64,000 bases of DNA from an uncultured Gammaproteobacteria bacterium (GCA_964511375.1 CAZEEW010000003.1:10987-74986), one strand, 5' to 3'; positions 17,467-55,038 are shown, counted from the stretch's first letter. A program made the numbers and translations. Notes: a model not told the origin generated them from the letters alone.

Positions 17467-17482
17467 GTGTTCCGTGACTTTA

Positions 17483-17554
17483 CGCTTCGCAGTTGATCTG
17501 AAATAGCAACTGTTACTATCTCAGACCGACACTGCGAAGCGCCGGCTATTTCAG
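17483..17554 (-). repeat. interleaved inverted repeats (pseudoknot-like or alternative hairpins) in the 3' region of the islet-1 gene
   Basis: cgcttcgcagt (17483-93) pairs with actgcgaagcg (17531-41). ctgaaatagc (17498-507) pairs with gctatttcag (17545-54). The order is A-B-A'-B'. B' overlaps the stop codon. Confidence 0.5.
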
Positions 17555-17769
17555 GATTTCTTCTTGAGACGGCGCTGGATGCGCCACAGGTAGGTGTATC
17601 CGATGGCGAGCAGGAGTCCCAGGACGATCTCGGTGAACGCCTCGACCGGCGTGTCTTTGATGAAGAGGCGGATGAGCCCCGTGACCACCATGATGTAGCC
17701 CAGGATCACGAACACCGGGACGAATGTATCGAAGAGATTCAGGATCATCATCTTGAACTGCTGAAACAT
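17551..17769 (-). CDS. 72-aa two-TM small membrane protein encoded in GC-rich islet 1
   Basis: GC3 near 90% against an AT-rich host. The RBS is gggaggc, 7 nt before the ATG. Promoter TTGACA-17-TATACT. Confidence 0.6.
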   Translation of the reverse strand: MFQQFKMMILNLFDTFVPVFVILGYIMVVTGLIRLFIKDTPVEAFTEIVLGLLLAIGYTYLWRIQRRLKKKS

Positions 17770-17819
17770 TTCTTTGCCTCCCTGCGCCGCGCAGGCGCTC
17801 CGTTGTCAGGGAACCAGTG

Positions 17820-17848
17820 AGTATAGCAAAGAGAGAGAGAGTTGTCAA
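17820..17848 (-). promoter_or_regulatory. sigma70-like promoter for the islet-1 gene, with a (CT)6 dinucleotide repeat in the spacer
   Basis: On the - strand: TTGACA-actctctctctctttgc-TATACT. The 13-mer tctttgctatact is shared with the helicase promoter at 28175. Confidence 0.5.
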
Positions 17849-17871
17849 GAACTGGGGTGTGCGGTAAAATG
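17843..17871 (+). promoter_or_regulatory. divergent promoter for the GT1 gene
   Basis: TTGTCA-17-TAAAAT, followed by the ggagggg RBS and ATG 17880. Confidence 0.4.
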
Positions 17872-17879
17872 GAGGGGTT

Positions 17880-18989
17880 ATGATTATCGGCATTGAAGTT
17901 GATCACGCCAACAAAGAACCACGAACTGGAGTTGAAGAAGTGTGTTGGCAAATAATTCAAAATTTAAAAAAAATTGTACCGAGCGAGGTGCAAGTCATTT
18001 TGTATTCCCGGAGTCCATTGAGAGGGGAACTGGGTATGTTGCCAACTAACTGGGAATCTAAAGTTCTTACCTGGTCACTTAGAAAGTTGTGGAGCCAAAC
18101 TCGTTTGGCGTATGAATTATGGAAAAACCCACCAGACATATATTTTGCTCCCGGACAGTTGCTGCCTTTTTTTTACACACCAAAGAATACCGTTACCTTT
18201 TTACACGACAGTGCTTTCCGGGTTTTTCCTGAGGCATATAACTTCTGGGGCAGGCAGTATCTAAAATTAATGGATCGACATATCTTTAAATCCAGTAAGT
18301 ATGTTGTAACTTCTTCAGAATTTAATCGTAAAGAAGTGAGAAGATTGTATGGTGAAAGTGCGGTTCAGAAGGTAAAAGTCATACCCCTCGGATTTTCTAG
18401 CGAATTTTCTGTTATCCCGAGAGATAACACTGTCTTAGATAAATATAATTTGAAGAAACCATACATATTATATGTCGGTCGGGTTGAAGAAAAGAAAAAC
18501 ATTGTGCGGCTTATTCAAGCTTTTAATGGTGTTAGGAAGACTATAGATGTTCAGTTGGTTTTAATCGGTAAACCAGGTGTGGGCTATGAAAAAATTAAAA
18601 AAGAAATTGAAGCCAGTCTTTTTAAAGAAGATATCCACGAATTAGGTTTTGTTAAAAAGGAAGATCTTTCAGCATTTTACTATGGCGCCTGGGTATTTGC
18701 CTTCCCATCGTTATATGAAGGTTTCGGTTTGCCGGTATTAGAAGCATTTGCATCTCAAATACCAGTCTTAACTTCTAAAGGTACAGGTGCTATCGAAGTT
18801 GCAGGCGATGCTGCGGTTATTGTTGACCCAATGAGTGTGGAAGAAATAACTAAGGGGATAGATAAGTTATTGAATGATGGCAATTTTAGAAAAGATTTAG
18901 TCTTAAAGGGCAAGGAACGTTTGTGTTATTACTCCTGGGAGAAGACTTCGGTTGGTATTTGGGAAATTTTACGCAATTGTCAGGAATAA
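17880..18989 (+). CDS. glycosyltransferase family 1 (GT4-type)
   Basis: EGFGLPVLEAFASQIPVLTS and the E-x7-E region. Confidence 0.75.
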   Translation: MIIGIEVDHANKEPRTGVEEVCWQIIQNLKKIVPSEVQVILYSRSPLRGELGMLPTNWESKVLTWSLRKLWSQTRLAYELWKNPPDIYFAPGQLLPFFYTPKNTVTFLHDSAFRVFPEAYNFWGRQYLKLMDRHIFKSSKYVVTSSEFNRKEVRRLYGESAVQKVKVIPLGFSSEFSVIPRDNTVLDKYNLKKPYILYVGRVEEKKNIVRLIQAFNGVRKTIDVQLVLIGKPGVGYEKIKKEIEASLFKEDIHELGFVKKEDLSAFYYGAWVFAFPSLYEGFGLPVLEAFASQIPVLTSKGTGAIEVAGDAAVIVDPMSVEEITKGIDKLLNDGNFRKDLVLKGKERLCYYSWEKTSVGIWEILRNCQE

Positions 18990-19023
18990 TCTTTTTTGTT
19001 ATTATATACCTGTTTTAAGGTAG

Positions 19024-26229: not shown

Positions 26230-26314
26230 GGGCAGGTACCGAAGCGGTCAAACGGGGCAGACTGTAAATCTGCTGGCTCTGCCTTCCTAGGTTCGAATCC
26301 TAGCCTGCCCACCA
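26230..26314 (+). tRNA. tRNA-Tyr(GTA), class II with long variable arm, encoded CCA
   Basis: Cloverleaf checked by hand. Anticodon stem GCAGA/TCTGC, loop CTGTAAA, T-arm CTAGG-TTCGAAT-CCTAG. Confidence 0.9.
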
Positions 26315-26324
26315 AGATAAAAAT

Positions 26325-26397
26325 GCCGCCTTAGCTCAGTTGGTAGAGCAGCACTTTTGTAAAGTGACGGTCCTGGGTTCAAGTCCCTGAGGCGGCT
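26325..26397 (+). tRNA. tRNA-Thr(TGT)
   Basis: Acceptor GCCGCCT/AGGCGGC. Anticodon loop TTTGTAA. One mismatch each in the anticodon and T stems. Confidence 0.75.
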
Positions 26398-26419
26398 CTG
26401 TGCATTAATAAGGGGTAAT

Positions 26420-26815
26420 ATGCATACAAAATTAAAAGGAGATATAGGGGAATTAGCAGTTGCTGGTGAGTTGCTTCGACTTGGGTGGAACGTTTCTTTT
26501 CCTTATGGTGAAAATTTGAAATACGATTTGATTGTTGAGAAGCAGGGGAAGATGAAGCGTGTACAGGTTAAGACAGTCATACCTAAAAATGGAGCTTTGC
26601 GGATAAATTGTCGCTCTTCAAATAATTGGACCGTTGTTCATTACAATAAAAATGATTTTGAAGTACTAGCAGTTTACGATTTAATTGCGCAAGATATATA
26701 TTTCATTCCGGTCTCAAAAATAAATAAAAGTTTGATTAATCTAAGGTTAAAGCCGGCGAAGAATTTTCAGAAGTTGAATATTAATTTAGCAAAAAGTTTT
26801 AAGAGTTTTAATTAG
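26420..26815 (+). CDS. small PD-(D/E)xK-type nuclease-like protein (Hjc/NucS-like fold), inserted between tRNA genes
   Basis: GDIGELAVAGELLRLGW...YDLIVEK...RVQVKT fits a G-x-E...D...(E/Q)-x-K arrangement. It sits where tRNA-Gly lies in the canonical thrU-tyrU-glyT-thrT cluster. Confidence 0.35.
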   Translation: MHTKLKGDIGELAVAGELLRLGWNVSFPYGENLKYDLIVEKQGKMKRVQVKTVIPKNGALRINCRSSNNWTVVHYNKNDFEVLAVYDLIAQDIYFIPVSKINKSLINLRLKPAKNFQKLNINLAKSFKSFN

Positions 26816-26816
26816 C

Positions 26817-26892
26817 GCCGTTGTAGCTCAGATGGTAGAGCGTCTCCATGGTAAGGAGAAGGTCTCGGGTTCAATTCCCGACAACGGCTCCA
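26817..26892 (+). tRNA. tRNA-Thr(GGT), encoded CCA
   Basis: Acceptor GCCGTTG/CAACGGC. Anticodon stem TCTCC/GGAGA with loop ATGGTAA. Confidence 0.85.
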
Positions 26893-26919
26893 GGTCGTTT
26901 TAAAATAATTAGGAAATCT

Positions 26920-27084
26920 ATGCCATCAAAAGAAAGAGAAAATCTAATTAAATTCGAGTGTGGCGATTGCAAACACACCAACTACTTCAGTCGTAAGAAT
27001 AAAAAGACTTTGAAGACCAGATTGCTGTTAAGCAAATATTGCAAGCATTGCAAGAAACACACCGAACATAAAGAAACCAAGTAA
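26920..27084 (+). CDS. rpmG: 50S ribosomal protein L33
   Basis: ECGDCKHTNYFSRKNKK...YCKHCKKHTEHKETK. Start trimmed to ATG 26920, which has aggaaa upstream. The longer track ORF overlaps the tRNA. Confidence 0.85.
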   Translation: MPSKERENLIKFECGDCKHTNYFSRKNKKTLKTRLLLSKYCKHCKKHTEHKETK

Positions 27085-27091
27085 CGAATGG

Positions 27092-27117
27092 GGCAGAAAT
27101 CATTTTCTGCCTCGTTT
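27092..27117 (+). terminator. rpmG terminator
   Basis: ggcagaaa-tcat-tttctgcc followed by a T-rich tail. Confidence 0.6.
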
Positions 27118-27122
27118 AATAC

Positions 27123-27193
27123 GGGGGGTTCGTATAGTGGAAGTACAGGGGTCTCCAAAACCTCTAGCGCGGGTCCGATTCCTGCACCCCCTG
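27123..27193 (+). tRNA. tRNA-Trp(CCA)
   Basis: Acceptor GGGGGGT/ACCCCCT (G1-U72). Anticodon stem GGGGT/ACCTC with loop CTCCAAA. Confidence 0.8.
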
Positions 27194-27230
27194 CAACGAA
27201 GTAAATGAATACAGATACAAAAAAACCGAG

Positions 27231-27259
27231 TTGAATACCAGCTTGGTTTTTGTTATAAT
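27231..27259 (+). promoter_or_regulatory. consensus-like sigma70 promoter
   Basis: TTGAAT-17-TATAAT, upstream of the 27283 gene. Confidence 0.55.
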
Positions 27260-27282
27260 TTCATTATCTTAATTTTTATATT

Positions 27283-27933
27283 ATGGGTCGTGAGAACAAA
27301 TTATCTAGTGGAGAATGGGTAGACCGAAATATAAACATGAGGTTTGTTGAAAAGAATAGAATTACCAGGAGACTTGCACGTATTCGATATAACCAAAAAA
27401 TTAATAATTTTTTGCGCAGGGAATTCGATGAGGAAGTTGAAAAGGCGCTGAACGCAAACGAGCTTGCTGAGAAAATATTAAACTATGTAAATACCAATAT
27501 TGGCGATAGTCATAAGTATGGTTTTTTTGGTAAGGAGATTTTAGAAAATTTGGTACATGATATATTGGAACACGGCAACTTTCCTATTAGGGTTATTGGC
27601 ACTGGTTTAAACAGAATAGTTTTTGTTTGTAAGTATGAAGGGAAATTTTATGCTTTAAAAATAGCAATTCGAAATAATGGTGTACACGATAATTCTGGCG
27701 AGGCAATACTTTGTCAGCATTCTGGTGAGCAAGATAGAAAATACTTCGCAAAGATATATGAAACTGGAGGGTGGAGGGTCGGATGGGTAATGCAGGAATT
27801 GTGCCAACCTGCCCCAGTAAATTCTATTGATGATCCGGGTTTATTTGAAGTGATTGAAAAGTATAATATTTCGGATCCACAAGGTGGTTATAATAAAGAC
27901 GGAGATTATAAGCTTTTTGATTTTGCTCACTAG
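27283..27933 (+). CDS. hypothetical protein with protein-kinase-like motifs (Gly-rich loop, YALKI, DFA at extreme C-terminus)
   Basis: GTGLNRIVFVCKYEGKFYALKIAIRN...HDN...KLFDFAH. The ORF ends right after the DFG-like motif, so it is either a very minimal kinase-like fold or a truncation. Confidence 0.3.
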   Translation: MGRENKLSSGEWVDRNINMRFVEKNRITRRLARIRYNQKINNFLRREFDEEVEKALNANELAEKILNYVNTNIGDSHKYGFFGKEILENLVHDILEHGNFPIRVIGTGLNRIVFVCKYEGKFYALKIAIRNNGVHDNSGEAILCQHSGEQDRKYFAKIYETGGWRVGWVMQELCQPAPVNSIDDPGLFEVIEKYNISDPQGGYNKDGDYKLFDFAH

Positions 27934-27950
27934 ACATTTAATATACATTT

Positions 27951-27980
27951 AAAAATCCCCGAGTTCATCGGGGATTTTGT
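27951..27980. terminator. bidirectional terminator
   Basis: aatccccga-gttca-tcggggatt. Confidence 0.6.
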
Positions 27981-28094
27981 TTAGTACTTCTTTACCGTTC
28001 GATTTCTTAAAACCTTAGTTTTCTTGGCCAAGGCTTTTCCAATCTTGGTATTCTTTTTGGAGTGCTTAATGCGGCTCTTTAAAGCAGAATTCAT
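27981..28094 (-). CDS. 37-aa highly basic protein (ribosomal-protein-like composition, weak resemblance to bS20 N-terminus)
   Basis: MNSALKSRIKHSKKNTKIGKALAKKTKVLRNRTVKKY. Not in the ORF track (<60 aa). A terminator lies immediately 3'. No SD. Confidence 0.3.
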   Translation of the reverse strand: MNSALKSRIKHSKKNTKIGKALAKKTKVLRNRTVKKY

Positions 28095-28158
28095 AGAAAT
28101 TTGGCTTAAATTTAATTAACAATAGCAGTATACACCTTTTAGCAAAAAAGATCAACCC

Positions 28159-28187
28159 TTGACAGTGCCCTAATTCTTTGCTATACT
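28159..28187 (+). promoter_or_regulatory. sigma70-like promoter of DEAD-box helicase gene
   Basis: TTGACA-17-TATACT. Confidence 0.55.
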
Positions 28188-28205
28188 GCCAAGTCTTTTA
28201 TTTAT

Positions 28206-28225
28206 GTTACAGTAATTACTGTAAC
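28206..28225 (+). promoter_or_regulatory. perfect 20-bp palindrome in helicase 5' UTR
   Basis: gttacagtaa|ttactgtaac, within a roughly 100-nt leader. Confidence 0.4.
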
Positions 28226-28291
28226 GACTCGAATCTCATAGTGTCATACGTTTTGTGGCCTTGAAGAAAATCGGGTCACAATTTTATTAAT

Positions 28292-29536
28292 ATGACACAT
28301 ATAGTAGCTACTACTGGTAGCTTTAGCGATTTACCAATCGCCACAACTCTTCTTAGTATATTGGAAAGCTTGCATTATAACAAGCCTACACCAATACAGT
28401 ACCAATGTATCGCCCCGGCTAATGAGGGAAAAGATATTGTTGGTATTGCCCAAACTGGCACTGGTAAGACCTTGGCTTTTACCATTCCTCTTATCCAGAG
28501 ATTGGCTGAAACCAAAGGCCAAGGTTTAATATTATTACCAACTCGCGAATTAGCTTTACAGGTGAATGAGGTATTAGAAAAAGTTGGAAAAAAAATTGGT
28601 CTTAAAACGGCCGTGATCATCGGGGGAGCTTCCTCTCATGAACAAATTCGAGCTTTACGTCGTGAACCTCATGTTATTGTTTCTACACCCGGACGCCTTA
28701 TTGACCACTTACAACAAAAGAATTTGAACTTAAATCGTATTTCCGTTGTAATTTTAGATGAAGCCGATCGAATGTTAGACATTGGTTTCATGCCGGCGAT
28801 TAAGCAGATTCTTTCTCTCTGTCCAACTAATCGTCAGACCATGATGTTTTCTGCTACCATGCCTAATGAAATTGCAGAAATTGCTTCACGGTTCATGAAG
28901 TTGCCGCTACGTATTGAAGTCGCTCCGGCTGGAACCTCTTCACAAAATGTGAATCAGGAATTATTCATCATCTCTAAGGAGGCGAAGATGCAGTTATTGG
29001 AAAAAGTGTTGGAGGACAACCCCGGAACAGTTTTAGTTTTTTCTAGAACTAAATTTGGCGCTAAGAAGATAACAAATAATATCCGCGCCATGGGCCATAC
29101 TGCCGCGGAGATCCATTCGAATAAGTCTCTTGCCCAAAGGCGGGCAGCATTGGAAGGTTTTAAATCAGGAAGGTTTCGCGTTTTAGTTGCTACCGACATC
29201 GCATCCCGTGGTATTGATGTAAAAAATATTTCATTGGTTGTGAATTATGATCTCCCGGACAATTCTGAAGACTATGTTCACCGGATCGGTCGGACTGGTC
29301 GAGCTAATGAATCTGGTAAGGCAGTTTCTTTTGCTACACCGGAAGAACGGGGAGATATTCGACAAATTGAACGACTAATTAAAAAAACTATTCCTGTTTT
29401 ATCTCTTCCTATCTTGCCGCCACGTCGAGGTAAGGTAGAAGTATCACGAGGTGAGAGTCGGCCCATTGGCAAACGTAATTTTTCTAGAATGAAGAAAGAA
29501 CTTCACTACCCCCGACGTTCTAAAAAACAAGGTTGA
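28292..29536 (+). CDS. DEAD-box ATP-dependent RNA helicase
   Basis: Q-motif, AQTGTGKT, DEAD, SAT and HRIGRTGR motifs. Basic C-terminal tail. Confidence 0.9.
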   Translation: MTHIVATTGSFSDLPIATTLLSILESLHYNKPTPIQYQCIAPANEGKDIVGIAQTGTGKTLAFTIPLIQRLAETKGQGLILLPTRELALQVNEVLEKVGKKIGLKTAVIIGGASSHEQIRALRREPHVIVSTPGRLIDHLQQKNLNLNRISVVILDEADRMLDIGFMPAIKQILSLCPTNRQTMMFSATMPNEIAEIASRFMKLPLRIEVAPAGTSSQNVNQELFIISKEAKMQLLEKVLEDNPGTVLVFSRTKFGAKKITNNIRAMGHTAAEIHSNKSLAQRRAALEGFKSGRFRVLVATDIASRGIDVKNISLVVNYDLPDNSEDYVHRIGRTGRANESGKAVSFATPEERGDIRQIERLIKKTIPVLSLPILPPRRGKVEVSRGESRPIGKRNFSRMKKELHYPRRSKKQG

Positions 29537-29554
29537 AACAAACCTTGTTTTTTG
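29522..29554 (+). terminator. helicase terminator overlapping stop codon
   Basis: aacaaggtt-gaaaca-aaccttgtt plus a T-run. The arms are near-identical to 3395-3428. Confidence 0.6.
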
Positions 29555-29598
29555 TTAAAATTGCTGAAGAGGGTTTTAAAAATTTTAAATTCATTAGT

Positions 29599-30351
29599 AT
29601 GCAACCTTGGGAAATTGCTTTGAATACTTTTTTAGCTGAATGGGAGAAAGAAGAACATTTTGTTGGTGCTTTACTTTGTGGTAGTCATGCTGTCGGTACT
29701 GCTAATAGCTTGTCTGATGTTGATGTACACATTATCTTGTCAGATAAGGCTAGTTGGCGTGAAAGAGGTAATAAAACAGTGAATGGAATTCAAATTGAAT
29801 ATTTCGTTAATCCAAAACATAAAATACATGAGTATTTAATAGAACAGTATGCATGGAATAGTTATATTACTGTTCGGATGTTTGCGACTGGCAAGACAGT
29901 CCGTGATCCTTATGGGGAAATGAAAAAGTTGCAAAACTGGGCCAAACAGGAGGTGAATAGGAAGTTTAAGAAGATGACTAAAGCGCGAATTGAACTGGAG
30001 AAATATCATCTATGGTATATTTTGGATAATCTTAAAGATTTACACATGCACAATTCTTTGGGTTTTATTTTCCTTTACCACAATGCCCTAGACAAGGCTT
30101 TTCATGTTTACGCTGAATATTTGCAGATGGAGATTCACTCCGAAGCTAAATTATACAAATACTTTAGTAGTAACGAATATCGCCATAAGTATAAAATGCC
30201 AGCTTTTCCCGACCAACAATTTACGCGGTTGTTTATAACAGCCTTAAAAAAGCAGAGTTATTCAAATATTGTAAAATTAATCAATCATGTAATAATTAAA
30301 ATGGGTGGCCTGAAACTCGAAAATTGGCACCTGCGTACTTCTGCTAATTAG
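29599..30351 (+). CDS. nucleotidyltransferase-domain protein (Pol-beta superfamily, KNTase/Lnu-like)
   Basis: CGSHAVGTANSLSDVDVHII. Start trimmed to ATG 29599; the upstream TTG would sit inside the terminator. Confidence 0.55.
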   Translation: MQPWEIALNTFLAEWEKEEHFVGALLCGSHAVGTANSLSDVDVHIILSDKASWRERGNKTVNGIQIEYFVNPKHKIHEYLIEQYAWNSYITVRMFATGKTVRDPYGEMKKLQNWAKQEVNRKFKKMTKARIELEKYHLWYILDNLKDLHMHNSLGFIFLYHNALDKAFHVYAEYLQMEIHSEAKLYKYFSSNEYRHKYKMPAFPDQQFTRLFITALKKQSYSNIVKLINHVIIKMGGLKLENWHLRTSAN

Positions 30352-30378
30352 TTTTTATTAGAATTAACAAAAAACAGC

Positions 30379-30407
30379 TTGACAATAAGCAGGAGGGTGT
30401 TATCATT
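30379..30407 (+). promoter_or_regulatory. promoter of ABC transporter operon
   Basis: TTGACA-16-TATCAT. Confidence 0.4.
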
Positions 30408-30409
30408 GG

Positions 30410-30432
30410 ATACATACTATTATAGTATGTAT
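30410..30432 (+). promoter_or_regulatory. perfect 11-1-11 palindrome (operator candidate) between promoter and ABC transporter start
   Basis: atacatactat-t-atagtatgtat. Confidence 0.5.
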
Positions 30433-30446
30433 TATGTTATTTACAT

Positions 30447-31346
30447 ATGCCGGCCTTACAAATTACCAAAGCATCCAAAATATTTACGGCTAAAAACAAT
30501 CAAACCGTTCGCGCTCTAGATGAAGTAAGTATGAATGTAGAGGCGGGGGAAATCCACGGCCTGCTTGGCCCGAACGGAGCAGGCAAGTCCACACTTATTA
30601 ATTTGATTAGCGGCGTTCTGCGTCCGACGGCCGGAGATATTGTAGTACACGGCGCTAGCGTGATAACACATACCGAAGATGTAAAAAAGATGCTTGGGGT
30701 CGTGCCACAAGAAATTGTTATTGAAATGGCCTTCACTGTGGAAGAGGTATTATATTATTTTAGTGGTATGTATGGCGTACCCCGAGAAGGACGGAAAGAA
30801 AAGATCGACAAAGTTTTGGTCGATCTGCAGCTGTTGGACAAGAAAAAAGAGCGGGCGCGTAGTCTTTCCGGTGGTATGAAGCGTCGGTTGATGATTGCTA
30901 AGGCGATTTTACATGAACCAAAGATCTTAATTCTAGACGAACCGACAGCTGGTGTGGACGTGGCCTTGCGGCAAAAAATTTGGGGGCTAGTTCGAGAATT
31001 GAATCAAAAAGGCACGACAATATTGTTCACTACCCATTATCTAGAAGAAGCTGAACAACTCTGTGACAATATTACCCTTATTAATCACGGCAAGATAATT
31101 AAAGAAGGGAAATTAAAAAATATTCTCCAGGAATATTCAACCAATGCTATACATTTCGAGCTGCACGATCGTAATGTAGAGCATTTGCCAGGGGTAAGAA
31201 GTCTCGGAACTATTTGGGAAATGGAGTCAGAAAATTTAGACGAGGACTTAAGCCGTCTGCTTAAACATTATGATGGAAATATTAAATCCATTCGTAATGA
31301 ATCTGCCTCCTTGGAGCAGGTCTTCTTAAAATTAACTAATAGCTAA
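30447..31346 (+). CDS. ABC transporter ATP-binding protein
   Basis: Walker [10 protein letters not shown], signature LSGGMKRRL and Walker B ILILDEP. Confidence 0.9.
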
Positions 31347-31348
31347 TT

Positions 31349-32107
31349 ATGGGTACATACACCTGGGCTTTGTATGCCCGTGAAGTGAAACGTTTCCAAA
31401 AGTTATGGATGGATACTATTTTTAGTCCAATTGTGTCCATGGCTTTGTACCTAACAATTTTTGGTATTGTCGTTGGCAATCGTTCCATTGAGGGGGTAAA
31501 TTTTTTAGCTTTTGTTTATTCTGGATTGTTGGCTATGATTATGGTTAACAGCAGCTTCTCCAATCCGGCTTTCTCTTTGATCATCGCTAAAAATGTTGGT
31601 AATATTATCGATTTACAAATTGTGCCTCTAAAACCCTGGCAGATTGGTTTGGCATATTCTACGGCAGCTTTTACGCGTGGCTTGGTAACTCTCATTGCCG
31701 CCATGCTGTTTACCGTTTGGTTTATACCGGGTTTAGGTTTGCATAATATTTTTTACCTTATCGTCGGACTGCTTGTTACTGGCCTAGAATTTGGACTGCT
31801 CGGAGTAATTTTTGGCATGTTGGCTAAGAGTTTTGAATCGTTAACTTTTATGACGACTTTTATCATGCAACCCATGATATTTTTAGCTGGGGTTTTTTAT
31901 CCAGTCGCTGTTCTTCCGGGTATCTGGTCTAAAGTAAGCTTGTTTAATCCGATCTTCCATAATGTTGAACTACTACGCTATTCACTTACGGGGTATAGTG
32001 ATATTGCCCCGTATTTTTCCTTGTTAATAACTATTGCTGTTGTAATCATCCTTTTTACTGGCATGTTTTTTGTGGTAAGAAGAGGAATAAGCAATGTTAG
32101 TGTTTAA
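31349..32107 (+). CDS. ABC-2 type transporter permease
   Basis: Six TM helices, adjacent to the ATPase. Confidence 0.75.
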   Translation: MGTYTWALYAREVKRFQKLWMDTIFSPIVSMALYLTIFGIVVGNRSIEGVNFLAFVYSGLLAMIMVNSSFSNPAFSLIIAKNVGNIIDLQIVPLKPWQIGLAYSTAAFTRGLVTLIAAMLFTVWFIPGLGLHNIFYLIVGLLVTGLEFGLLGVIFGMLAKSFESLTFMTTFIMQPMIFLAGVFYPVAVLPGIWSKVSLFNPIFHNVELLRYSLTGYSDIAPYFSLLITIAVVIILFTGMFFVVRRGISNVSV

Positions 32108-32205
32108 TTGAATTGGAGGGTAGACAATGTGGAATGGACCATATTGCTTTTTTATTTACATTATGTTTAAATTTTTCTATCTTCAACCACTAGAAGGGGG
32201 TGGTT

Positions 32206-32421
32206 GTGAAAGATGAAGCCCGGCTTCCGAACCTCGGAAGCGAAGCGGCTCGGTTTTTCCTAGCCTTGGGGAAGGTTGCTGATATCCCAGTCAGCACAGC
32301 GGTCTCCACGGCCGGGGAAGAGAGCGCCTACTCTTTCGGGCATTGGAAGTGCCCGATTTGTGGGCGCAAGAACTTCTCGGTAGGCACGTGCCCGCAGTGC
32401 GGCACGCGACGGCCCCTCTGA
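32206..32421 (+). CDS. 71-aa zinc-ribbon protein encoded in GC-rich islet 2
   Basis: CPICG-x11-CPQCG. GC-rich codons. GTG start after aaggggg. Flanked by the 11-bp direct repeat gaagggggtgg. Confidence 0.5.
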   Translation: MKDEARLPNLGSEAARFFLALGKVADIPVSTAVSTAGEESAYSFGHWKCPICGRKNFSVGTCPQCGTRRPL

Positions 32422-32586
32422 AGGGGGTGGGGAGAGATCATGAAGCTGCCTTACTAGGGTGGGCGAGCACTCAGCAGGACTCCGCTCAACCACCTGTTGG
32501 GTTTCTGTGTATTAGGAACCCAGCAGGGGGAGATGGGCGGAGTTTTGTGTTGACTAAAAATATATTTTAGTATTTAATGGTCTGGT

Positions 32587-33789
32587 ATGAAAAAAGTAAA
32601 AAAACCAGAACTCATGTGTCCTATACGTAATTTTGCTAGCCTTGAGGCTTGCAAGGATTATGCTGATGCAGTATATTTTGGTGTTTCTGACTTTAGTCTA
32701 CGGGCAAACGCTAATGCAGTCCGTCAAGAAAATATGGGAGATTTTGTTGCTAAATGTCATGAGTATAAAATAAAGGCCTACCTTACAGTTAATGCGGTTG
32801 TTTACGAGACTGGCTTAAAAGAACTGGACAAGTTAATGAAAAAGGCAAAGTCCGCCAAAGTCGATGCCGTTATTGTTTGGGATCCAGCAGTAATACAATT
32901 AGCCAAAAAACACGGTTTAACAATATTTATTTCTACGCAAGCCAATGTTTCTAATTCAGAAACAGTTGAATTTTATCATAAACAAGGAGCGAAACGAGTT
33001 GTCTTGGCGCGGGAGATGAGTTTAGAACAAATTAAAACTGTCCGTAAGAAAACAAAAATTGAAATCGAAACCTTTGTTCATGGGGCCATGTGTATGGCCA
33101 TCTCCGGTCGTTGTGTTTTATCTAGTTATTTGTATGGCACTTCCGCAAACTGTGGCTTTTGCGCCCAACCTTGTCGTAAAGAGTGGGTTTTGAGTGACGG
33201 GGAAGGTAATCAGCTGGTAACGGAGGGAAAATATTTTTTGAGTGCCAAGGATTTGTGTATGATTGAATTTGTCCCTGAGCTAATAAAAGCTGGGATAAAT
33301 TCTTTTAAGATTGAAGGTCGTCGTCGCGACCCACGATATATCGCGGTAACGGCCAAATGTTATCGCGAAGCGATTGATAGCTATTTTACTGGTAATTATA
33401 CTCGGGAAAAAGTGGCCGTCTGGCGGAAAGAGCTAGAGACTGTGTATAATCGAGGCTATTCCACTGGTTTTTACTTCAGCGTTCCCGGTAAAGAGGGAAT
33501 TAGTTATGAAAAGGCTGATAACGCTTCGGAACACAAAAAGAATTTGGTTGGATATGTCATTAAGTATTATCCAAAAATTGGCGTGGCCGAAGTTAAATTA
33601 AACCATGGTGTTATTAAAATCGGCGATCGACTTGTCGTTGAGGGTCAGGAAACATTTATCGAACAAGAAGTTACTTCTTTGGAAGTGGAATCTAAATCTA
33701 TTAAAAAAGGCAACAAAGGCATGACTGTGGCGGTAAAATTAGTTAAGCCAGCTAAACCGAAAGACCACCTCTTTGTTCTTAATGTATAA
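32587..33789 (+). CDS. peptidase U32 family protein
   Basis: N-terminal region typical of U32 (PrtC/YhbU-like). Conserved Cys cluster. Confidence 0.75.
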   Translation: MKKVKKPELMCPIRNFASLEACKDYADAVYFGVSDFSLRANANAVRQENMGDFVAKCHEYKIKAYLTVNAVVYETGLKELDKLMKKAKSAKVDAVIVWDPAVIQLAKKHGLTIFISTQANVSNSETVEFYHKQGAKRVVLAREMSLEQIKTVRKKTKIEIETFVHGAMCMAISGRCVLSSYLYGTSANCGFCAQPCRKEWVLSDGEGNQLVTEGKYFLSAKDLCMIEFVPELIKAGINSFKIEGRRRDPRYIAVTAKCYREAIDSYFTGNYTREKVAVWRKELETVYNRGYSTGFYFSVPGKEGISYEKADNASEHKKNLVGYVIKYYPKIGVAEVKLNHGVIKIGDRLVVEGQETFIEQEVTSLEVESKSIKKGNKGMTVAVKLVKPAKPKDHLFVLNV

Positions 33790-33801
33790 AGCATCTCTAA
33801 T

Positions 33802-33824
33802 AAAGCGCACAAAGCGCTTTTTTG
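33802..33824 (+). terminator. U32 gene terminator
   Basis: aaagcgc-acaaa-gcgcttt plus a T-run. Confidence 0.55.
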
Positions 33825-33854
33825 TTGACAGCAAAAATTTTCTCTCATTATAAT
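33825..33854 (+). promoter_or_regulatory. sigma70-like promoter
   Basis: TTGACA-18-TATAAT. Confidence 0.5.
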
Positions 33855-33899
33855 AAAAAGAGAGCAGTTAATTTTAATTCAAGTAACCTTACTAAATAT

Positions 33900-34349: not shown

Positions 34350-34370
34350 ATATTTTATCATGGCTAGACT

Positions 34371-38457: not shown

Positions 38458-38547
38458 ATAAGCGATTTTTTACTTTATTTCATCTCTTGTTTTATTTTAA
38501 AAGCTATGATAAAATAATTGGGCTAAATAAGCCTATTTTTTGTTATT

Positions 38548-41340
38548 ATGTCTTTATTAACCAAAATATTTGGTGATCCGAATAAAAAAGTGATCGAGAG
38601 TCTTCAGCCTATCGTAGAAAAAATTAATTCCTTGGAGTCAGCCATGGTTAATTTGTCTATGAATGACTTAAAGGGAAAAACAGAAGAATTTAAAAATCGC
38701 CTAAGTAAAGGCGAGACATTGGAAGATCTTCTGCCAGAGGCGTTTGCAGTCGTTCGTGAAGTTTCAAAGCGCCTAACGGGCATGCGACATTTCGATGTCC
38801 AGCTTATGGGCGGTATCGTTTTGCATCGCGGACAGATTTCGGAAATGCGAACTGGTGAAGGTAAGACTTTGGTGGCAACTTTACCAATCTATTTAAATGC
38901 CTTAACTGGTCGGGGTGTTCATTTGGTTACCGTCAATGATTATCTGGCGAAACGTGACGCAGTTTGGATGAGCCAAATCTATGACGCACTTGGTTTAACT
39001 ATTGGTATTATCCAACAACAGAATGTTTCATATAAATATAATGCTACTGCCAGAGCAGCTGGCGAAAATCTAGCTGAGGGCAGTGAAAGTGACGAGCAGC
39101 GAGATAAAACTGGAATGTTTAAAGTTGAGAACGAATATCTAGATCGTTGTACTCGTAAAGAAGCTTACGCTTGTGATATTACCTATGGTACCAATAATGA
39201 ATTTGGTTTTGACTATCTCCGCGACAATATGGTGCAAGACTTGTCGCAAATGGTACAACGACCTTTTTATTTTGCTATCGTTGACGAAGTTGACTCTATT
39301 TTAATTGATGAAGCACGCACCCCACTTGTTATCTCTGCTCCAGCTGAAGATGCGACCGAAAAGTATTATCGCTTTGCTGACCTAGTAGCACGGTTGAAAG
39401 TTAACGAAGACTATAACGTCGATGAAAAGATGCGCTCGTCTACCTTGACAGAGGCTGGTATTAAAAAAATGGAAGAATGGTTAGGTATAGATAATATTTA
39501 CGCTGAAGGTGGTTTGGGTACAGTGCATCATGTCGAACAAGCTTTACGTGCCCATGCTTTGTTTAAACGCGATCGAGACTATGTTGTTGAAAACGGTGAA
39601 GTTATAATTGTCGATGAATTTACTGGTCGCAAAATGCCAGGTCGCAGGTATAGCGAAGGCTTGCATCAAGCCATTGAGGCGCAAGAGCGAGTTAAGATCC
39701 AACGCGAAAGCCAAACTCTTGCTACCATTACTTTCCAGAACTACTTCCGCATGTACGAAAAGTTAGCTGGTATGACTGGTACGGCGGTTACGGAAGCTGA
39801 AGAATTTGGCAAAATATATAAGCTAGAAGTTGTGGTCATTCCAACCAACAAAATTGCTCAACGTCTTGACCGCCCGGATCGTATTTACCGTACGGAAGAA
39901 GCTAAATATAAAGCCATCGCGCGGGAAGTAAAAGAACTGCAACAAAAAGGTCAGCCGGTCTTGATCGGTACTATCTCAGTGGATAAAAACGAAGCCCTAA
40001 GTCTGTTTTTAGAACGCGAAGGGATTAAACATGAAATTTTAAATGCTAAGAACCATGAGCGAGAAGGTGAAATTATTGCTCAAGCTGGCCGACCGGGTGC
40101 TGTGACTTTGGCCACAAACATGGCTGGTCGTGGTGTTGATATTATTTTAGGCGGTAATCCACCAGACAAAGAAATGGGGGACAAGGTCCGTGCTAACGGT
40201 GGTTTGTTTGTGATTGGTACAGAACGACATGAGTCACGCCGTATAGATAACCAGCTTCGTGGTCGCGCTGGTCGCCAGGGGGACCCGGGTGCTACCCAGT
40301 TTTATCTTTCTACTGAAGACGATCTTATGCGTATTTTCGCGGGTGATCGGATCCGAGCGGTTATGAAGACCCTGCGTGTACCAGATGACATGCCGATTGA
40401 GCAGAAAAGCATTACCAGTATTATTGAATCAGCCCAAAAGAAAGTTGAGGGTTTCCATTTTGATACCCGTAAGCATTTACTCGAGTTTGATGATGTCTTA
40501 AATCGTCATCGCGAAGTAATTTATGGCAAACGTAAGGTTATTTTAGAAGAGTTTACTCGCCAAAGAGAAATGATTCGGGCTAGTGAAGCAGGAAATCCAA
40601 CGGTTGAAACTCCAGAAGAAGTAGGCAAACAAAAACTGCAAGACATGATTTTAGAAATGATTGAGCAAGAACTGGAACAAATCATTTCTTTTCACACTGC
40701 TTCCGAAGAACGTAGCGAGTGGAACATGCAGGAAATTGCCGAGTCTGTCCAAACTATTTACCCTTTGACCGAAGAAGAAAAAGCTAAGCTTTTGGCTTTT
40801 AAAAATCCAAGTGCAGAAAAATTAGAATCAATCGAGGAAAGAACCAAGGCAATTGAATACTTGAATGAGCTGGCTAAGTCTAAATACGAAGAGTTGTTGA
40901 TTAAAAAAGTTCCGCATCCGGAAATGATGCTTGAGATTGAAAAGCAAGTTTTGCTTCGCGCTATTGACAATCTGTGGTTAGAACACTTAGTGGCTGTTGA
41001 TCACCTTAGAACAGGTATCGGTTTACGCGGTTATGGCCAGCGCGATCCGTTAGTTGAATACAAAAAAGAAACATACCAGATGTTTAATGAACTTCTGAGT
41101 TTAATACAAAAAGAAGTTGTCTATACTATTTATAAAGTTAGTATAGGTATTGAATTTGCACCTAGTGTCATGGCAAAAGAAAACGTGACTTTAAGTGGTG
41201 CGGCTAAAACTAGTGATGGTAATACAGCAACGCAAACCTCTAAACCAAAAATGATTGATCAAACTGGTAACGAACCAGGGCGCAATGATCCATGTCCGTG
41301 TGGAAGTGGATTGAAGTATAAAAAGTGTCATGGAAAGTAA
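38548..41340 (+). CDS. secA: preprotein translocase SecA
   Basis: Full-length SecA with a C-terminal CPCGSGLKYKKCHG zinc finger. Confidence 0.95.
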   Translation: MSLLTKIFGDPNKKVIESLQPIVEKINSLESAMVNLSMNDLKGKTEEFKNRLSKGETLEDLLPEAFAVVREVSKRLTGMRHFDVQLMGGIVLHRGQISEMRTGEGKTLVATLPIYLNALTGRGVHLVTVNDYLAKRDAVWMSQIYDALGLTIGIIQQQNVSYKYNATARAAGENLAEGSESDEQRDKTGMFKVENEYLDRCTRKEAYACDITYGTNNEFGFDYLRDNMVQDLSQMVQRPFYFAIVDEVDSILIDEARTPLVISAPAEDATEKYYRFADLVARLKVNEDYNVDEKMRSSTLTEAGIKKMEEWLGIDNIYAEGGLGTVHHVEQALRAHALFKRDRDYVVENGEVIIVDEFTGRKMPGRRYSEGLHQAIEAQERVKIQRESQTLATITFQNYFRMYEKLAGMTGTAVTEAEEFGKIYKLEVVVIPTNKIAQRLDRPDRIYRTEEAKYKAIAREVKELQQKGQPVLIGTISVDKNEALSLFLEREGIKHEILNAKNHEREGEIIAQAGRPGAVTLATNMAGRGVDIILGGNPPDKEMGDKVRANGGLFVIGTERHESRRIDNQLRGRAGRQGDPGATQFYLSTEDDLMRIFAGDRIRAVMKTLRVPDDMPIEQKSITSIIESAQKKVEGFHFDTRKHLLEFDDVLNRHREVIYGKRKVILEEFTRQREMIRASEAGNPTVETPEEVGKQKLQDMILEMIEQELEQIISFHTASEERSEWNMQEIAESVQTIYPLTEEEKAKLLAFKNPSAEKLESIEERTKAIEYLNELAKSKYEELLIKKVPHPEMMLEIEKQVLLRAIDNLWLEHLVAVDHLRTGIGLRGYGQRDPLVEYKKETYQMFNELLSLIQKEVVYTIYKVSIGIEFAPSVMAKENVTLSGAAKTSDGNTATQTSKPKMIDQTGNEPGRNDPCPCGSGLKYKKCHGK

Positions 41341-46555: not shown

Positions 46556-46581
46556 ATATCCACCAAAGTGGATATTTTTAG
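46556..46581 (+). terminator. terminator after 45126-46541 gene
   Basis: atatccac-caaa-gtggatat plus a T-run. Confidence 0.6.
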
Positions 46582-46589
46582 TAAACACA

Positions 46590-46646
46590 CTTCTCGGTAC
46601 TCTAGAAAATACATAGACATATATTCTCTAGGGCACGACCGAGAAG
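46590..46646. repeat. GC-clamped long hairpin with AT-rich interior at 3' end of islet-3 gene
   Basis: Outer stem cttctcggt/accgagaag (9 bp) enclosing about 39 nt. The internal ctctag direct repeat is AT-rich. Confidence 0.45.
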
Positions 46647-46693
46647 CGGATGCACCCCTGGCGTGGGGCGCCATGGCAGGGTGTTCGGGGGGG

Positions 46694-46843
46694 CTAGCGG
46701 ACGATCCAGCAGATGAAACGCTGGTCGTCCGGGTTGGAGTAACAGGGCTTCAGGTCCGCCTTGAGGGCGAACCAGGAGATGACGAGAAATGTCAGGACAG
46801 CGAACGCGAGGCCCGCCGCCCTCTTCCAAGTGAACGCCGCCAC
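46694..46843 (-). CDS. 49-aa single-TM small protein encoded in GC-rich islet 3 (GTG start)
   Basis: Not in the ORF track. RBS aggagg, 5 nt before the GTG. GC3 about 87%. Sequence MAAFTWKRAAGLAFAVLTFLVISWFALKADLKPCYSNPDDQRFICWIVR. Confidence 0.45.
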   Translation of the reverse strand: MAAFTWKRAAGLAFAVLTFLVISWFALKADLKPCYSNPDDQRFICWIVR

Positions 46844-47102
46844 CGGAACCTCCTACTGATTTTTCTCAACTGCAACGGGAAGAGCGAGCCCTTCGTCTCT
46901 TCCGGCAGATGCAGTCGTTCCTGTATCTTCTCCGGCCGCTTCGGTAGAAGCCGCCAGATGATTCCCATGAGAACCGCGATCCCGATACCCAACCCCATTC
47001 TTACCTCCTGAGTTGGGTTGGTGCGCCTAGACGTGAACTTCACGCCAGACAACGACTAAACATACTCTTTTTGTCTGGTTTTGTCAATGTGATTAATGTG
47101 CA

Positions 47103-50064: not shown

Positions 50065-50288
50065 AATAAAAAATCTCTGTCCAAGCAGAGAAAAAAGATC
50101 TAAAAACAGAGTTCCTGCTCGGGATTTAAAGATATTTGAAGACCGGACTTGTCCCGAATTTGCTCGGGCCTTACCGTTGCGGCACAGTGGAGGAATTACA
50201 CCTCACTTCCACAAATATCTTTTTAAATTGTTAGTATAGAGAGATTAACATTTAGGAAACGGACTGTCAAACAGGAGTTATCAACAGG

Positions 50289-51134: not shown

Positions 51135-51137
51135 ATT

Positions 51138-53085: not shown

Positions 53086-53933
53086 ACTTTTTTAATTTTT
53101 CTTTCCGCACAAGTTACAGTGTTTTGTAACAATAAGGCCACCGTAATTGGTCCGATCCCTCCGGGAGTAGGGGTAAAGTAGCTAGCTTTCTTTTTTATTT
53201 CTTTTGCGTTTGCATCACCATACATCTTCTCTCCCACATAGCTAATGCCGGTATCGATAACAATTGTTCCTTTTTTAACCATATCACCACGTAAAAGATT
53301 CTTTTTCCCCACTGCCGTAACCACAATGTCGGCTGTGCGGGTTTTTTCTTTAACATTTTTTGTACGTTTATTGCAGGTTGTAACTGACGCACCTTCGTTC
53401 ATGAGCATAATAGATAGAGGTCGGCCCACTAACGCTCCGGTGCCAACAATAGTAATGTTCTTTCCTTGCAAAGTAGTTTTAGTTTCTTTTAAAGCAGCCA
53501 GTACTGCCTCGGGGGTGGGAGGATAAAGAAAATTAGTGCCCATAACTAATTTTCCCACATTGGTATCTGTTAAGCAATCCACATCAATTGACGGATTAAT
53601 AGCATTAATAACGTCGGGTGTGTACAATCTTTCTGGCAAGGGAAGTTGAACGATTAGACCACACAGATCTCGGTCTTCTTGAATTTTTTTAATTTCGTTA
53701 ACTAATCTATCTCTGTCAATGTTTTCTTTAAAGGAATATAGCGAAAAAGAAATACCTACTCTTTCTGCTGCCTCTTGTTTTTTTCGAATGTATGTTTCTG
53801 ATGGCTTATGGTCGCCAACAAAAATCACAGCCAACCCAGGGCTTAATCCTTTTATTTTGAGCTTTTTCACTCGGTTGACTAACCGCTCTTCAATTTTTTC
53901 AGCAATAATTTTGCCTTTAATTAGCTTGGCCAT
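53082..53933 (-). CDS. folD: bifunctional methylenetetrahydrofolate dehydrogenase/cyclohydrolase
   Basis: FolD motifs: the YxxxK region, GRPLSIMLMN and PGGIGPITVA. Confidence 0.9.
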   Translation of the reverse strand: MAKLIKGKIIAEKIEERLVNRVKKLKIKGLSPGLAVIFVGDHKPSETYIRKKQEAAERVGISFSLYSFKENIDRDRLVNEIKKIQEDRDLCGLIVQLPLPERLYTPDVINAINPSIDVDCLTDTNVGKLVMGTNFLYPPTPEAVLAALKETKTTLQGKNITIVGTGALVGRPLSIMLMNEGASVTTCNKRTKNVKEKTRTADIVVTAVGKKNLLRGDMVKKGTIVIDTGISYVGEKMYGDANAKEIKKKASYFTPTPGGIGPITVALLLQNTVTCAERKIKKV

Positions 53934-53984
53934 ACGATAAGTATGGCCTTATTCTAGCAGATTTTAAGGAAAAAAACAATGTCT

Positions 53985-54530
53985 CTAAGATAAGCGCTGG
54001 CGAAGATACGTGCCGATGTTTTTAAACTTGTCTAAAATGTGCTTAGCTTCAGGATTGTAGTTTTTTAGTACTTTAGGGCCCATCTCTAATTTATGGATTT
54101 TTTCCAATAACTTAAGAGGGTGTAAACGTTTGAAATTGCCGGTTTCTACAAGGGTAATTTTGTTTCTCACATTACTCGGAAAATTTTTTGTAATCTCTTC
54201 ATTAATGGGCTGAGGACAAAAAAGATAAATGTTATTAAAGTCGTGCTTACCAGTATAGCTTTTTAACTTTGGTTGAAGTAGCTTATAGTATTCTTGTTTA
54301 ACAATGTGTACTTTGTCTTCATATACCGCTCCCGATCGAATTGTTTTACCAGATGTCCTGACTTTGAAATGGCCTTCTTTATCTGAATAGTCCGGTTTGT
54401 TGGCTTTAATATATTCCACTTCGTTTATTTCTCCGTCCTTAGCGATTAGCAGCCGAGCGTCATTTGTTCCTGAAACAACAATCAGAGACGTTTCTTTTTG
54501 GAATTTTGGCAACCCTTTTTTGATCATCAT
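53985..54530 (-). CDS. hypothetical protein
   Basis: 181-aa ORF with no recognisable motif. Confidence 0.4.
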   Translation of the reverse strand: MMIKKGLPKFQKETSLIVVSGTNDARLLIAKDGEINEVEYIKANKPDYSDKEGHFKVRTSGKTIRSGAVYEDKVHIVKQEYYKLLQPKLKSYTGKHDFNNIYLFCPQPINEEITKNFPSNVRNKITLVETGNFKRLHPLKLLEKIHKLEMGPKVLKNYNPEAKHILDKFKNIGTYLRQRLS

Positions 54531-54614
54531 ACTTTTGTTAGTTTAAAAGTTATATCTTTATCTTCTCGGATCGTGCATATACTTGTCAAAGGGACAAAAC
54601 TTTTTAATACAAAA

Positions 54615-54677
54615 ACCACCCCGAAAACCCTCCTCCCTCTGAACCTAAACTTTAGGTCAAGAGGGAGAAGCGGGGTG
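54615..54677. repeat. long nested imperfect hairpin (three stacked stems) in islet 4
   Basis: Three stacked stems: ccaccccg/cggggtgg, ctccctct/agagggag and acctaa/ttaggt. Confidence 0.5.
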
Positions 54678-54756
54678 GCTTCTGCGAAAGGAGCGATGAG
54701 GCCGCCCGGCACGGTGCCGGGGGCGGGGATAGGGGACAGTGCGGCTTAGACGCCGG

Positions 54757-54939
54757 CTAGCGGATCAGGAGCGCCGAGCGGCGCCGGGCGGGTTCCTGGT
54801 GGCGGCCGTTGGCGGCCGGGGGCGGGACCTCGGGAACGTCGGTGCGCGGCTCCGAGGCCGCGCGCCGGATCTGCTCGGAGAGCTGCTGCAGGTGGGGGGA
54901 TCCGATCCCCCGGGTCTTCTTGTAGACGCGCTGCTTCAT
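54757..54939 (-). CDS. 60-aa basic, Pro/Arg-rich hydrophilic protein encoded in GC-rich islet 4
   Basis: GC3 about 95%. RBS ggtggag, 7 nt before the ATG. The hairpin ccctgc-N6-gcaggg lies immediately upstream. Other frames here are also open because of composition. Confidence 0.4.
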   Translation of the reverse strand: MKQRVYKKTRGIGSPHLQQLSEQIRRAASEPRTDVPEVPPPAANGRHQEPARRRSALLIR

Positions 54940-55038
54940 GATCTATCTCCACCCTGCGGGCTTGCAGGGCCCGAATATTAAAGCACACTGGAGGGAAAAA
55001 ATCAAGATTGGGCATATTCGGTTGTTAATAAGTTAGAT

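Follow-up and report, generated by a model that had tools for sequence, protein, structure and literature searches.

The four GC-rich islets described here lie in intergenic DNA of a 64,000-nucleotide window (GCA_964511375.1, CAZEEW010000003.1:10987-74986). Judged by its proteins, the nearest relatives of this DNA are Magasanikbacteria-like Patescibacteria, with identities of only 48-73%. The islets (I1 to I4) are probably native, vertically inherited and self-contained transcription units of a Magasanikbacteria-like lineage of the candidate phyla radiation (CPR), and their GC-richness appears to be actively maintained. A sequence-only reading of the window had proposed either the recurrent insertion of foreign-composition cassettes or a novel class of structured small-protein loci. 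The second proposal is borne out by promoter-to-terminator modules, covarying RNA, codon periodicity and the same architecture in other Magasanikbacteria-like genomes, whereas the first conflicts with the finding that islets 3 and 4 occupy the same sites in relatives, with homologous promoters, 5′ hairpins and hairpins in the 3′ untranslated region (UTR). Comparison between genomes shows the predicted units to be autonomous, conserved and coding, and their UTR structures to be under selection. This previously undescribed but real class of loci fits best among the structured small-protein mRNAs, as an unusual variant; we know of no described precedent for its compositional and translational signature.

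Composition, translation signals and products

The window has an overall GC content of 40.2%. Sliding scans with 120-nt or 200-nt windows find just four long GC-rich stretches in it, at 17472-17829, 32168-32576, 46568-47070 and 54558-55047, where GC peaks at 0.58-0.67 over 200 nt, as had been noticed on first inspection. The same detector gives 7 stretches in about 1.26 Mb of unrelated loci, versus these 4 in 64 kb. The open reading frames (ORFs) of the islets have a GC content at third codon positions (GC3) of 0.69-0.95, compared with 0.357 +/- 0.048 in 57 ordinary ORFs of the window; the highest value among real ordinary genes is 0.43. The islet ORFs show codon periodicity, and their GC3 lies more than 10 standard deviations above the genome. 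GC at codon positions 1/2/3 is.51/.27/.86 in the I1 ORF,.52/.46/.88 in the second ORF of islet 3 (I3b) and.74/.53/.95 in the I4 ORF. The claim of a single ORF per islet with a GC3 of 85-95% thus holds in part: the ORFs exist and these three lie in that range, but islet 3 carries two overlapping ORFs, each led by a Shine-Dalgarno (SD) site, and the I2 ORF reaches 0.69 overall and about 0.8 in its C-terminal (ribbon) half. The GC-rich part of each islet is essentially its predicted transcribed part.

Assembly artefact is excluded. A Logan assembly of run SRR5011273 matches positions 26280-40539 of the window at 99.99% identity, islet 2 included. Orthologous islets were seen in six other assemblies from different projects (SPAdes, MEGAHIT, JGI), and every islet has the same syntenic genome on either side. 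Genes adjoining islets 1 and 4 had no record in look-ups of independent Logan contigs. The abrupt jump in composition would fit chimeric assembly or contamination, a possibility that the earlier reading had raised; given the reproduced islet 2 and the orthologous islets in assemblies of other samples, its probability is next to nil.

Each islet has a predicted near-consensus sigma-70-type promoter immediately upstream in AT-rich DNA, followed by a 5′ hairpin next to a strong SD site, one or two short ORFs and a structured 3′ UTR. Apart from the islets the genome is nearly SD-less, in agreement with the first description. The predicted SD:anti-SD duplex is -6.5 to -12.6 kcal/mol for the islet ORFs; in 52 ordinary genes it averages -1.1 kcal/mol and is -6 or lower in 2. 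One of these two is the glycosyltransferase gene that diverges from islet 1, with an SD-like GGAGGGG at 17865-17879 (+). In the predicted full-length transcripts the SD sites of the islets are mostly base-paired (unpaired probability 0.05-0.35), except in islet 3, where the SD and start codon lie in a hairpin loop. The parts of the four units, all predicted, are as follows; H1 and H2 are the short and long hairpins of the 3′ UTR.

Islet 1
17820-17848 (-): promoter TTGACA-17-TATACT with TG extension, 11/12 match, overlapping the divergent glycosyltransferase promoter
17777-17795 (-): 5′ GC hairpin CCUGCGC..GCGCAGG running into SD GGGAGG; anti-SD duplex -10.9 kcal/mol, SD mostly paired
17551-17769 (-): ORF of 72 aa, hydrophobic with basic C-terminus, GC3 0.86, orphan; a two-helix membrane protein by inspection
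17480-17545 (-): long two-tier 3′ hairpin GCGCUUCGCAG...CUGCGAAGCG, distinct from the terminator downstream
17435-17463 (-): bidirectional intrinsic terminator, common to islet 1 and mreB

Islet 2
32155-32183 (+): promoter-like site TTTACA-17-TATCTT, 9/12 match
32184-32206 (+): 5′ hairpin CAACCAC..GUGGUUG enclosing SD AAGGGGG; anti-SD duplex -12.6 kcal/mol
32200-32421 (+): ORF of 71-73 aa with C-terminal CxxC..CxxC zinc ribbon; Zn_ribbon_RanBP E 2e-4, below the Pfam cut-off
32213-32263 (+): 16-codon ATG ORF MKPGFRTSEAKRLGFS, overlapping the start of the zinc-ribbon ORF
32422-32549 (+): structured 3′ UTR with long hairpin (32477-32543), then a U-run; z -5.8

Islet 3
47059-47087 (-): promoter TTGACA-17-TATGTT, kept in L082, L085 and L102 as TTGACAAA..TATACT
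46792-46998 (-): I3a ORF of 68 aa, N-terminal hydrophobic helix and basic tail, SD AGGAGG; 47% identical to the L085 orthologue (E 1e-13)
46694-46843 (-): I3b ORF of 49 aa, one hydrophobic helix, GC3 0.88, own SD AGGAGG inside I3a; weak similarity to the L085 orthologue
46655-46681 (-): short 3′ UTR hairpin H1
46585-46652 (-): long two-tier 3′ hairpin H2, CCGCUUCUCGG...CCGAGAAGUG, 93-95% identical to L085
46551-46580: separate terminator downstream of H2

Islet 4
54977-55005 (-): promoter TTGATT-17-(TGc)TTTAAT, kept in L082 and L085, back to back with the cupredoxin promoter
54947-54969 (-): 5′-terminal hairpin CCCUGC..GCAGGG abutting SD GGUGGAG; covaries, with CUCGC/GCGAG in L082
54757-54939 (-): ORF of 60 aa, hydrophilic, pI 11.6, GC3 0.95; orthologues keep position, periodicity and composition, not sequence
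54702-54726 (-): 3′ UTR hairpin H1, 9 bp; 4/9 pairs compensatory across 3 species
54610-54685 (-): long hairpin H2, doubling as terminator, with invariant base GCAGAAGCCACCCCGCUUCUCCC / GGGAGGAGGGUUUnCGGGGUGG and covarying apical stem

L-numbers denote comparison loci. Islet 2 also holds a direct repeat, GAAGGGGGTGG-N9-ATGAAGC, at 32193-32219 and 32420-32446 (+). Its first copy lies 5′ of the 16-codon ORF, and the second overlaps the stop codon of the zinc-ribbon ORF and is followed by a 5-codon ORF, MKLPY. The repeat and the mini-ORFs may represent translational coupling or a regulatory mini-ORF.

Most products are basic (isoelectric point, pI, of 9-12), and many of them consist of one hydrophobic helix plus a basic tail; the L082/L085 peptides include the 28-aa MTAFIAVVIVIVLACFVGWVMTHPTKRR. 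The I4 product has a high content of arginine and proline. When all islet ORFs were scanned with Pfam, PHROGs and PADLOC, the only matches were sub-threshold zinc ribbons and one EF-Tu domain 2, with no PHROG family for any ORF. The I1 protein, the one islet protein covered by exhaustive homology search, has no match in a word-index search of 5.8 billion clusters or with phmmer against 1.84 billion representatives. None of the five small SD-led islet ORFs is present in a 15-billion-protein collection by exact look-up. As judged from these searches, all islet ORFs are orphans. Stop codons are few in the islets, and gene callers overlook the real small ORFs with their SD sites and put false ORFs of 89-187 aa there that have been deposited in protein databases, among them a 173-aa and a 187-aa ORF over the orthologous islets of the L082 and L085 groups. 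The false calls are:

Window: 17546-17893 (-), 46568-47011 (+), 54746-55015 (-)
L082: 4699-5220
L085: 4000-4563
L102: 13747-14229, 19722-20240

Orthologous islets and conserved RNA structures

Gene order around islets 3 and 4 is kept in two relatives, represented by L082/L083/L084 and by L085/L086/L087 in several independent assemblies. GC-rich islets are present in both, at precisely the two intergenic positions that they have in the window, between flanking proteins 48-73% identical to those of the window. A three-way alignment of islet 4 reveals that the promoter, 5′ hairpin, H1 and H2 are conserved and that the ORF is unalignable: conservation extends up to the SD and resumes about 20 nt past the stop codon. 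The three ORFs, of 60, 63 and 74 aa, begin at the same position after the SD with the same periodicity, have GC3 values of 0.95, 0.95 and 0.82, and encode products of pI 11.3-11.6 and grand average of hydropathy (GRAVY) -1.1 to -1.3 without detectable sequence similarity. I3a has synonymous differences from its L085 orthologue. Nucleotide identity in the islet 3 ORF region is 55-68%, comparable to the 67-72% of the flanking genes. Conservation of the small ORFs, on which the first reading had laid weight, is thus found in the sequence of I3a and the composition of I4, but not in the sequence of I4. Three-base periodicity is strong in exactly the SD-proximal frame in the window and both orthologues, and with codon position 2 the least GC-rich, it shows that constraint acts at the protein level too.

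GC3 is still 0.64-0.95 in all lineages with islets 3 and 4, and synonymous-site GC is 82-95% at the islet 4 locus and 64-88% at that of islet 3. The flanking genes have diverged far enough that a drift toward 36% would be expected, which suggests that something keeps the islets GC-rich. At these two islets the composition cannot, on the present comparisons, be a leftover of foreign origin.

The GC hairpin by the ribosome-binding site and the complex 3′ structure reported at the outset are both present. Against shuffled sequence, whole islets have folding z-scores of -4 to -7.6, and their 3′ UTRs score -5.8 to -8.4. In islets 3 and 4 the 3′ UTR consists of H1 followed by the two-tier H2, in which an internal loop lies between a GC-rich base and an AT-rich apical stem; a two-tier hairpin is also present in islet 1, and islet 2 ends in a long hairpin of its own. 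H2 forms a duplex of 25-33 bp. The bases of H2 in islets 1, 3 and 4 have a common motif, GCUUC(U/G)C...G(A/C)GAAG, and this hairpin-base motif of 7-9 nt is the only sequence common among islets; near-identical copies like those of insertion sequences or miniature inverted-repeat transposable elements were not seen. Islets 1 and 3 have a separate ordinary terminator after H2, common to the convergent neighbour gene, which argues that H2 is more than a terminator.

Across the three islet 4 sequences 9 of 42 pairs show compensatory changes; in its H2, 5 compensatory pairs fall in the apical stem and 23 basal pairs are invariant. In the hairpin of the I1/I3 type 8 of 21 pairs are changed on both sides, a number reached or beaten in 2 of 500 shuffles, and the pairing collapses once the partners are slid. 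A covariance model of this hairpin scores 64-77 bits on the sense strand but 19-31 on the antisense strand, and G-U pairs are numerous in the stems, so that the structure is one of RNA on the ORF strand and not a DNA palindrome. The model finds no further copies in 236 kb. No Rfam 15 family matches islets 1-4 at gathering score, and at E up to 5 only chance-level matches appear for islets 1, 3 and 4 (islet 2 was searched at the gathering threshold). A metagenome scan with the invariant 22-mer of the I4 hairpin returned the L085 organism only, and a viral scan with the I3 hairpin pattern gave only chance matches in GC-rich phage contigs. The stem of H2 in islet 4 of the window is built of GGGAGGAGGG paired with CUUCUCCC.

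Similar units are found in more distant Magasanikbacteria. L098 has two in tandem (395-965 and 1056-1475, -), with TTGACA promoters and AGGAGG SD sites; their ORFs, of 132 aa (GC3.82) and 70 aa (Cys-rich, GC3.87), stand out from a background GC3 of.28-.41, and both 3′ domains are closed by the same stem, GUCGAAGGAGGG/CCCUCCUUCGAC. The first arm of this stem is a perfect SD-like sequence and the second a perfect anti-SD-like one. In L102 the islet 3 slot is occupied by an unrelated 135-aa soluble protein (GC3.69) behind the same TTGACAAAACCA..TATACT promoter. Another unit, at a different place in L102, has an ORF (GC3.76) for a hydrophobic membrane protein of 154 aa with multiple helices; H1 and a two-tier H2 are present in each of the two units. 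L080 provides a weaker example of a GC-rich unit, and the other comparison loci examined have no such units. In general, the hairpin base is common within one genome and different between distant genomes, and the payload at one slot can differ between lineages.

The islet 3 slot holds two tandem units in L085 (12468-13487) and one in L082 (12362-12964). The promoter and 5′ UTR of the L082 unit resemble those of the first L085 unit and its H2 that of the second, which suggests deletion or recombination between tandem units.

Alternative readings

If small cassettes had arrived recently by horizontal transfer from a GC-rich donor, several features would be accounted for at once: GC1/GC2/GC3 of 0.74/0.53/0.95 is the typical output of a genome of about 70% GC, SD use is alien to the host genome, and there is clean presence and absence between the sister lineages L085 and L090. 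In L090 the cupredoxin gene and the gene for a 181-aa protein lie 164 bp apart with both promoters intact and islet 4 missing. However, pairwise cupredoxin identities imply the relationship (W,(L082,(L085,L090))), W being the window, and since L090 nests inside the islet-bearing group the empty site is most simply a loss. Comparison of the filled (L085) and empty (L090) junctions reveals no target-site duplications or terminal inverted repeats. Neither a recombinase nor a reverse transcriptase or transposase is found among 20 ORFs of the window scanned with Pfam, and precomputed Pfam marks for the genes at 26.3-40.5 kb include no recombinase. Donor homologues are also missing: besides the I1 protein, islet 4 DNA has no BLAST match in phage records, and the 132-aa ORF of L098 has none in phage or plasmid records. 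With orthologous sites, homologous UTRs and a GC3 that has not drifted despite the divergence, the insertion reading appears largely refuted for islets 3 and 4, and for the islets as a whole it is improbable. Phage morons are likewise autonomous promoter-gene-terminator modules of deviant composition between unrelated genes, but the islets differ in having a housekeeping chromosome context, not a prophage, and a position conserved across species. Hardly more credible than insertion, and about equal to it, is the view that the islets are structured non-coding RNAs in which GC-rich sequence with few stop codons leaves accidental ORFs. The UTR hairpins are indeed better conserved than the ORFs, GC-rich intergenic regions of AT-rich genomes often hold structured RNAs, and gene callers already make false long ORFs over the islets. 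The periodicity in the SD-proximal frame, the correctly spaced SD before each ORF, the amino-acid conservation of I3a with synonymous differences, the preserved product composition of I4 and the lack of Rfam matches, at permissive thresholds too for islets 1, 3 and 4, all point the other way.

Somewhat less remote, although unlikely, are two readings that take the units as genuine genes of known type. Relatives of the type I toxin-antitoxin systems (hok, tisB, aapA1, fst) would produce stable folded mRNAs for membrane-damaging peptides, with an SD sequestered until processing releases it. The islets share with these systems a small size, an intergenic position that escapes annotation, multiple and sometimes tandem copies (L085, L098), predicted highly folded and presumably stable mRNAs with part-sequestered SD sites and strong 3′ stem-loops, and poorly conserved, fast-evolving peptides, of which those of I1, I3a, I3b and L082/L085 are short hydrophobic helices with basic tails. 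Nevertheless, a consensus scan, the only kind made, finds no opposite-strand promoter-like site inside any islet for an antisense or overlapping antitoxin RNA, the hydrophilic I4 product, the I2 zinc ribbon and the 132-154 aa ORFs of L098 and L102 are unlike membrane toxins, and significant fold-back pairing of the 5′ and 3′ ends is lacking. To our knowledge, GC-richness is not a feature of type I systems, nor are such an extreme GC3 and the contrast with an SD-less genome. A slightly smaller chance may be given to fixed expression slots with exchangeable payloads, where the promoter and 3′ hairpin stay and the ORF is replaced by recombination, as in a one-cassette counterpart of integrons or of the moron hotspots of phages. 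The three I4 ORFs that cannot be aligned between conserved flanks, the islet 3 payload (membrane peptides in the window, L082 and L085 versus the soluble protein of L102), the tandem units of L085 and the 3′ hairpins with a genome-specific conserved base and variable centre, as in attC sites, would all fit; integron cassettes, too, combine a small orphan ORF of deviating composition with a long imperfect hairpin. Yet the extreme pI and hydropathy kept by the I4 orthologues and the recognisable homology of I3a and I3b indicate divergence in place, and across 1.6 Mb no payload recurs in another slot or genome. The islets are solitary or paired at conserved chromosomal sites, each unit having its own promoter and SD. 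Their hairpin bases (GCUUCUC.../...GAGAAG(Y)) lack the R″/R′ cores (RYYYAAC/GTTRRRY) of attC, no integrase is found among the window ORFs scanned, and the strand-specific hairpin with its G-U pairs is a feature of RNA.

Two other comparisons concern single traits. In the SD-less Flavobacteriia/Bacteroidota, rpsU (bS21) is a rare SD-led mRNA among SD-independent starts, and this likeness would imply a separately regulated translation class; the islets differ in their unrelated products, many loci, GC-rich coding sequence and elaborate UTRs. Dual-function and 3′ UTR-derived small RNAs (RNAIII/hld, SgrS/SgrT, SR1) also join a small ORF to conserved RNA modules in a short transcript, but in the islets no target-pairing region was identified and the conserved parts are stems, not single-stranded seeds. 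Two further candidates were dropped: adenine mutagenesis like that of diversity-generating retroelements, because third codon positions are poor in A and T alike and no template copy was noticed, and GC-rich RNA of the thermophile style, because the ORFs show codon periodicity.

Native units with maintained GC-richness remain the favoured reading, and several observations weigh against it. The orthology evidence is confined to islets 3 and 4. Payload turnover would explain the unrelated 135-aa ORF of L102 at the islet 3 slot better than vertical descent alone. Between the 5′ and 3′ UTRs, pairing does not exceed that obtained with shuffled sequence. Nor do the I1 and I4 coding regions fold better than such sequence (z +0.2 and -0.7), so specific structure leaves their GC-richness unexplained, and the AT-rich apical stems of H2, which covary nonetheless, show that structure alone need not demand GC. 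As a consequence, neither structure alone nor regional mutational bias accounts for a GC3 of 0.8-0.95, and selection at each site holding a GC3 of 0.95 against an AT-biased genome is hard to justify.

Neighbouring genes and meaning of the islets

The neighbours of the islets are CPR housekeeping genes: mreB, RRF, a class II aminoacyl-tRNA synthetase, TIM, SecDF and type IV secretion pilin genes. The U32 peptidase by islet 2 (32587-33789, +) has its closest non-CPR relatives in Methanosarcinales, at 50% identity and above most bacteria, which hints at gene exchange between the CPR lineage and methanogens. A ribosomal protein L10 leader lies at 8897-9051 (+), a tRNA cluster (Tyr-GTA, Thr-TGT, Thr-GGT, Trp-CCA) at 26230-27194 (+) and tRNA-Gln(CTG) at 57863-57936 (-); tRNAs for G/C-ending codons are retained in the genome though such codons are rare outside the islets. 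At 50078-50234 (-) an adenosylcobalamin (AdoCbl) riboswitch (Rfam 64.7 bits) precedes an operon of DUF4430, a 593-aa prenyltransferase/SQHop-cyclase-like protein and DUF6580; these three genes are adjacent in all relatives, and the operon is probably a cobalamin uptake or binding module. In other genomes, L097 (10710-20328) and L096 have the same cupredoxin gene and diverge just downstream of it, where L097 carries what looks like a strain-specific integrated element, with genes for a serine recombinase, DNA methylases, an HTH protein and a Peptidase_M78 protein.

If the islets are native units, each would give rise to a short GC-rich folded RNA, about 330-470 nt long, in which a strong SD directly follows a hairpin at or near the 5′ end. 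The RNA would encode one or two small, mostly basic proteins, either membrane helices, a disordered Arg/Pro-rich peptide or a zinc ribbon, and end in a 3′ module of H1, H2 and terminator. Messengers that are long-lived but sparingly translated classically combine a 5′-terminal hairpin and a strong SD with a GC-rich body and large 3′ hairpins, and the combination of 5′ hairpin, GC-rich body and 3′ hairpins may make the islet mRNAs unusually stable and limit their translation in this way. Their translation would rely on SD pairing, whereas other genes start without SD, so that they could form an expression class under separate control. H2 probably serves to recruit a trans-acting factor, e.g., RNase III or an RNA-binding protein, since the islets of one genome have its basal sequence in common and this sequence is invariant between species. 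As for the GC-richness itself, it might be held by RNA-level selection or by some biased process specific to the locus.

A wider proposal, which we put forward only tentatively and regard as rather doubtful, is that Magasanikbacteria-like CPR keep a class of genes in a second "dialect," with SD-dependent start, GC-rich codons, a genome-specific 3′ hairpin tag, conserved slots, fast payload turnover and a locus-specific GC mechanism. Candidates for the latter are strong selection at the RNA level, biased conversion and templated renewal. If this proposal is true, the islets may constitute a separately translated regulon, served for example by a ribosome subpopulation with free anti-SD or expressed under particular conditions; more speculatively, the RNAs could be marked by their hairpins for processing or export.

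The islets also point to a class of CPR small proteins that is missing from public protein databases or wrongly recorded in them. Stretches of outlying composition in a bacterial genome are routinely taken as signs that DNA was recently acquired by horizontal transfer. A GC3 that persists in the islets against a genome equilibrium of about 36%, while the peptides change freely, would break this inference and call for a maintaining force that has not been described. Being essentially the sole SD-led genes of an SD-less genome, the islet genes may offer a handle on how translation starts are partitioned in CPR bacteria.

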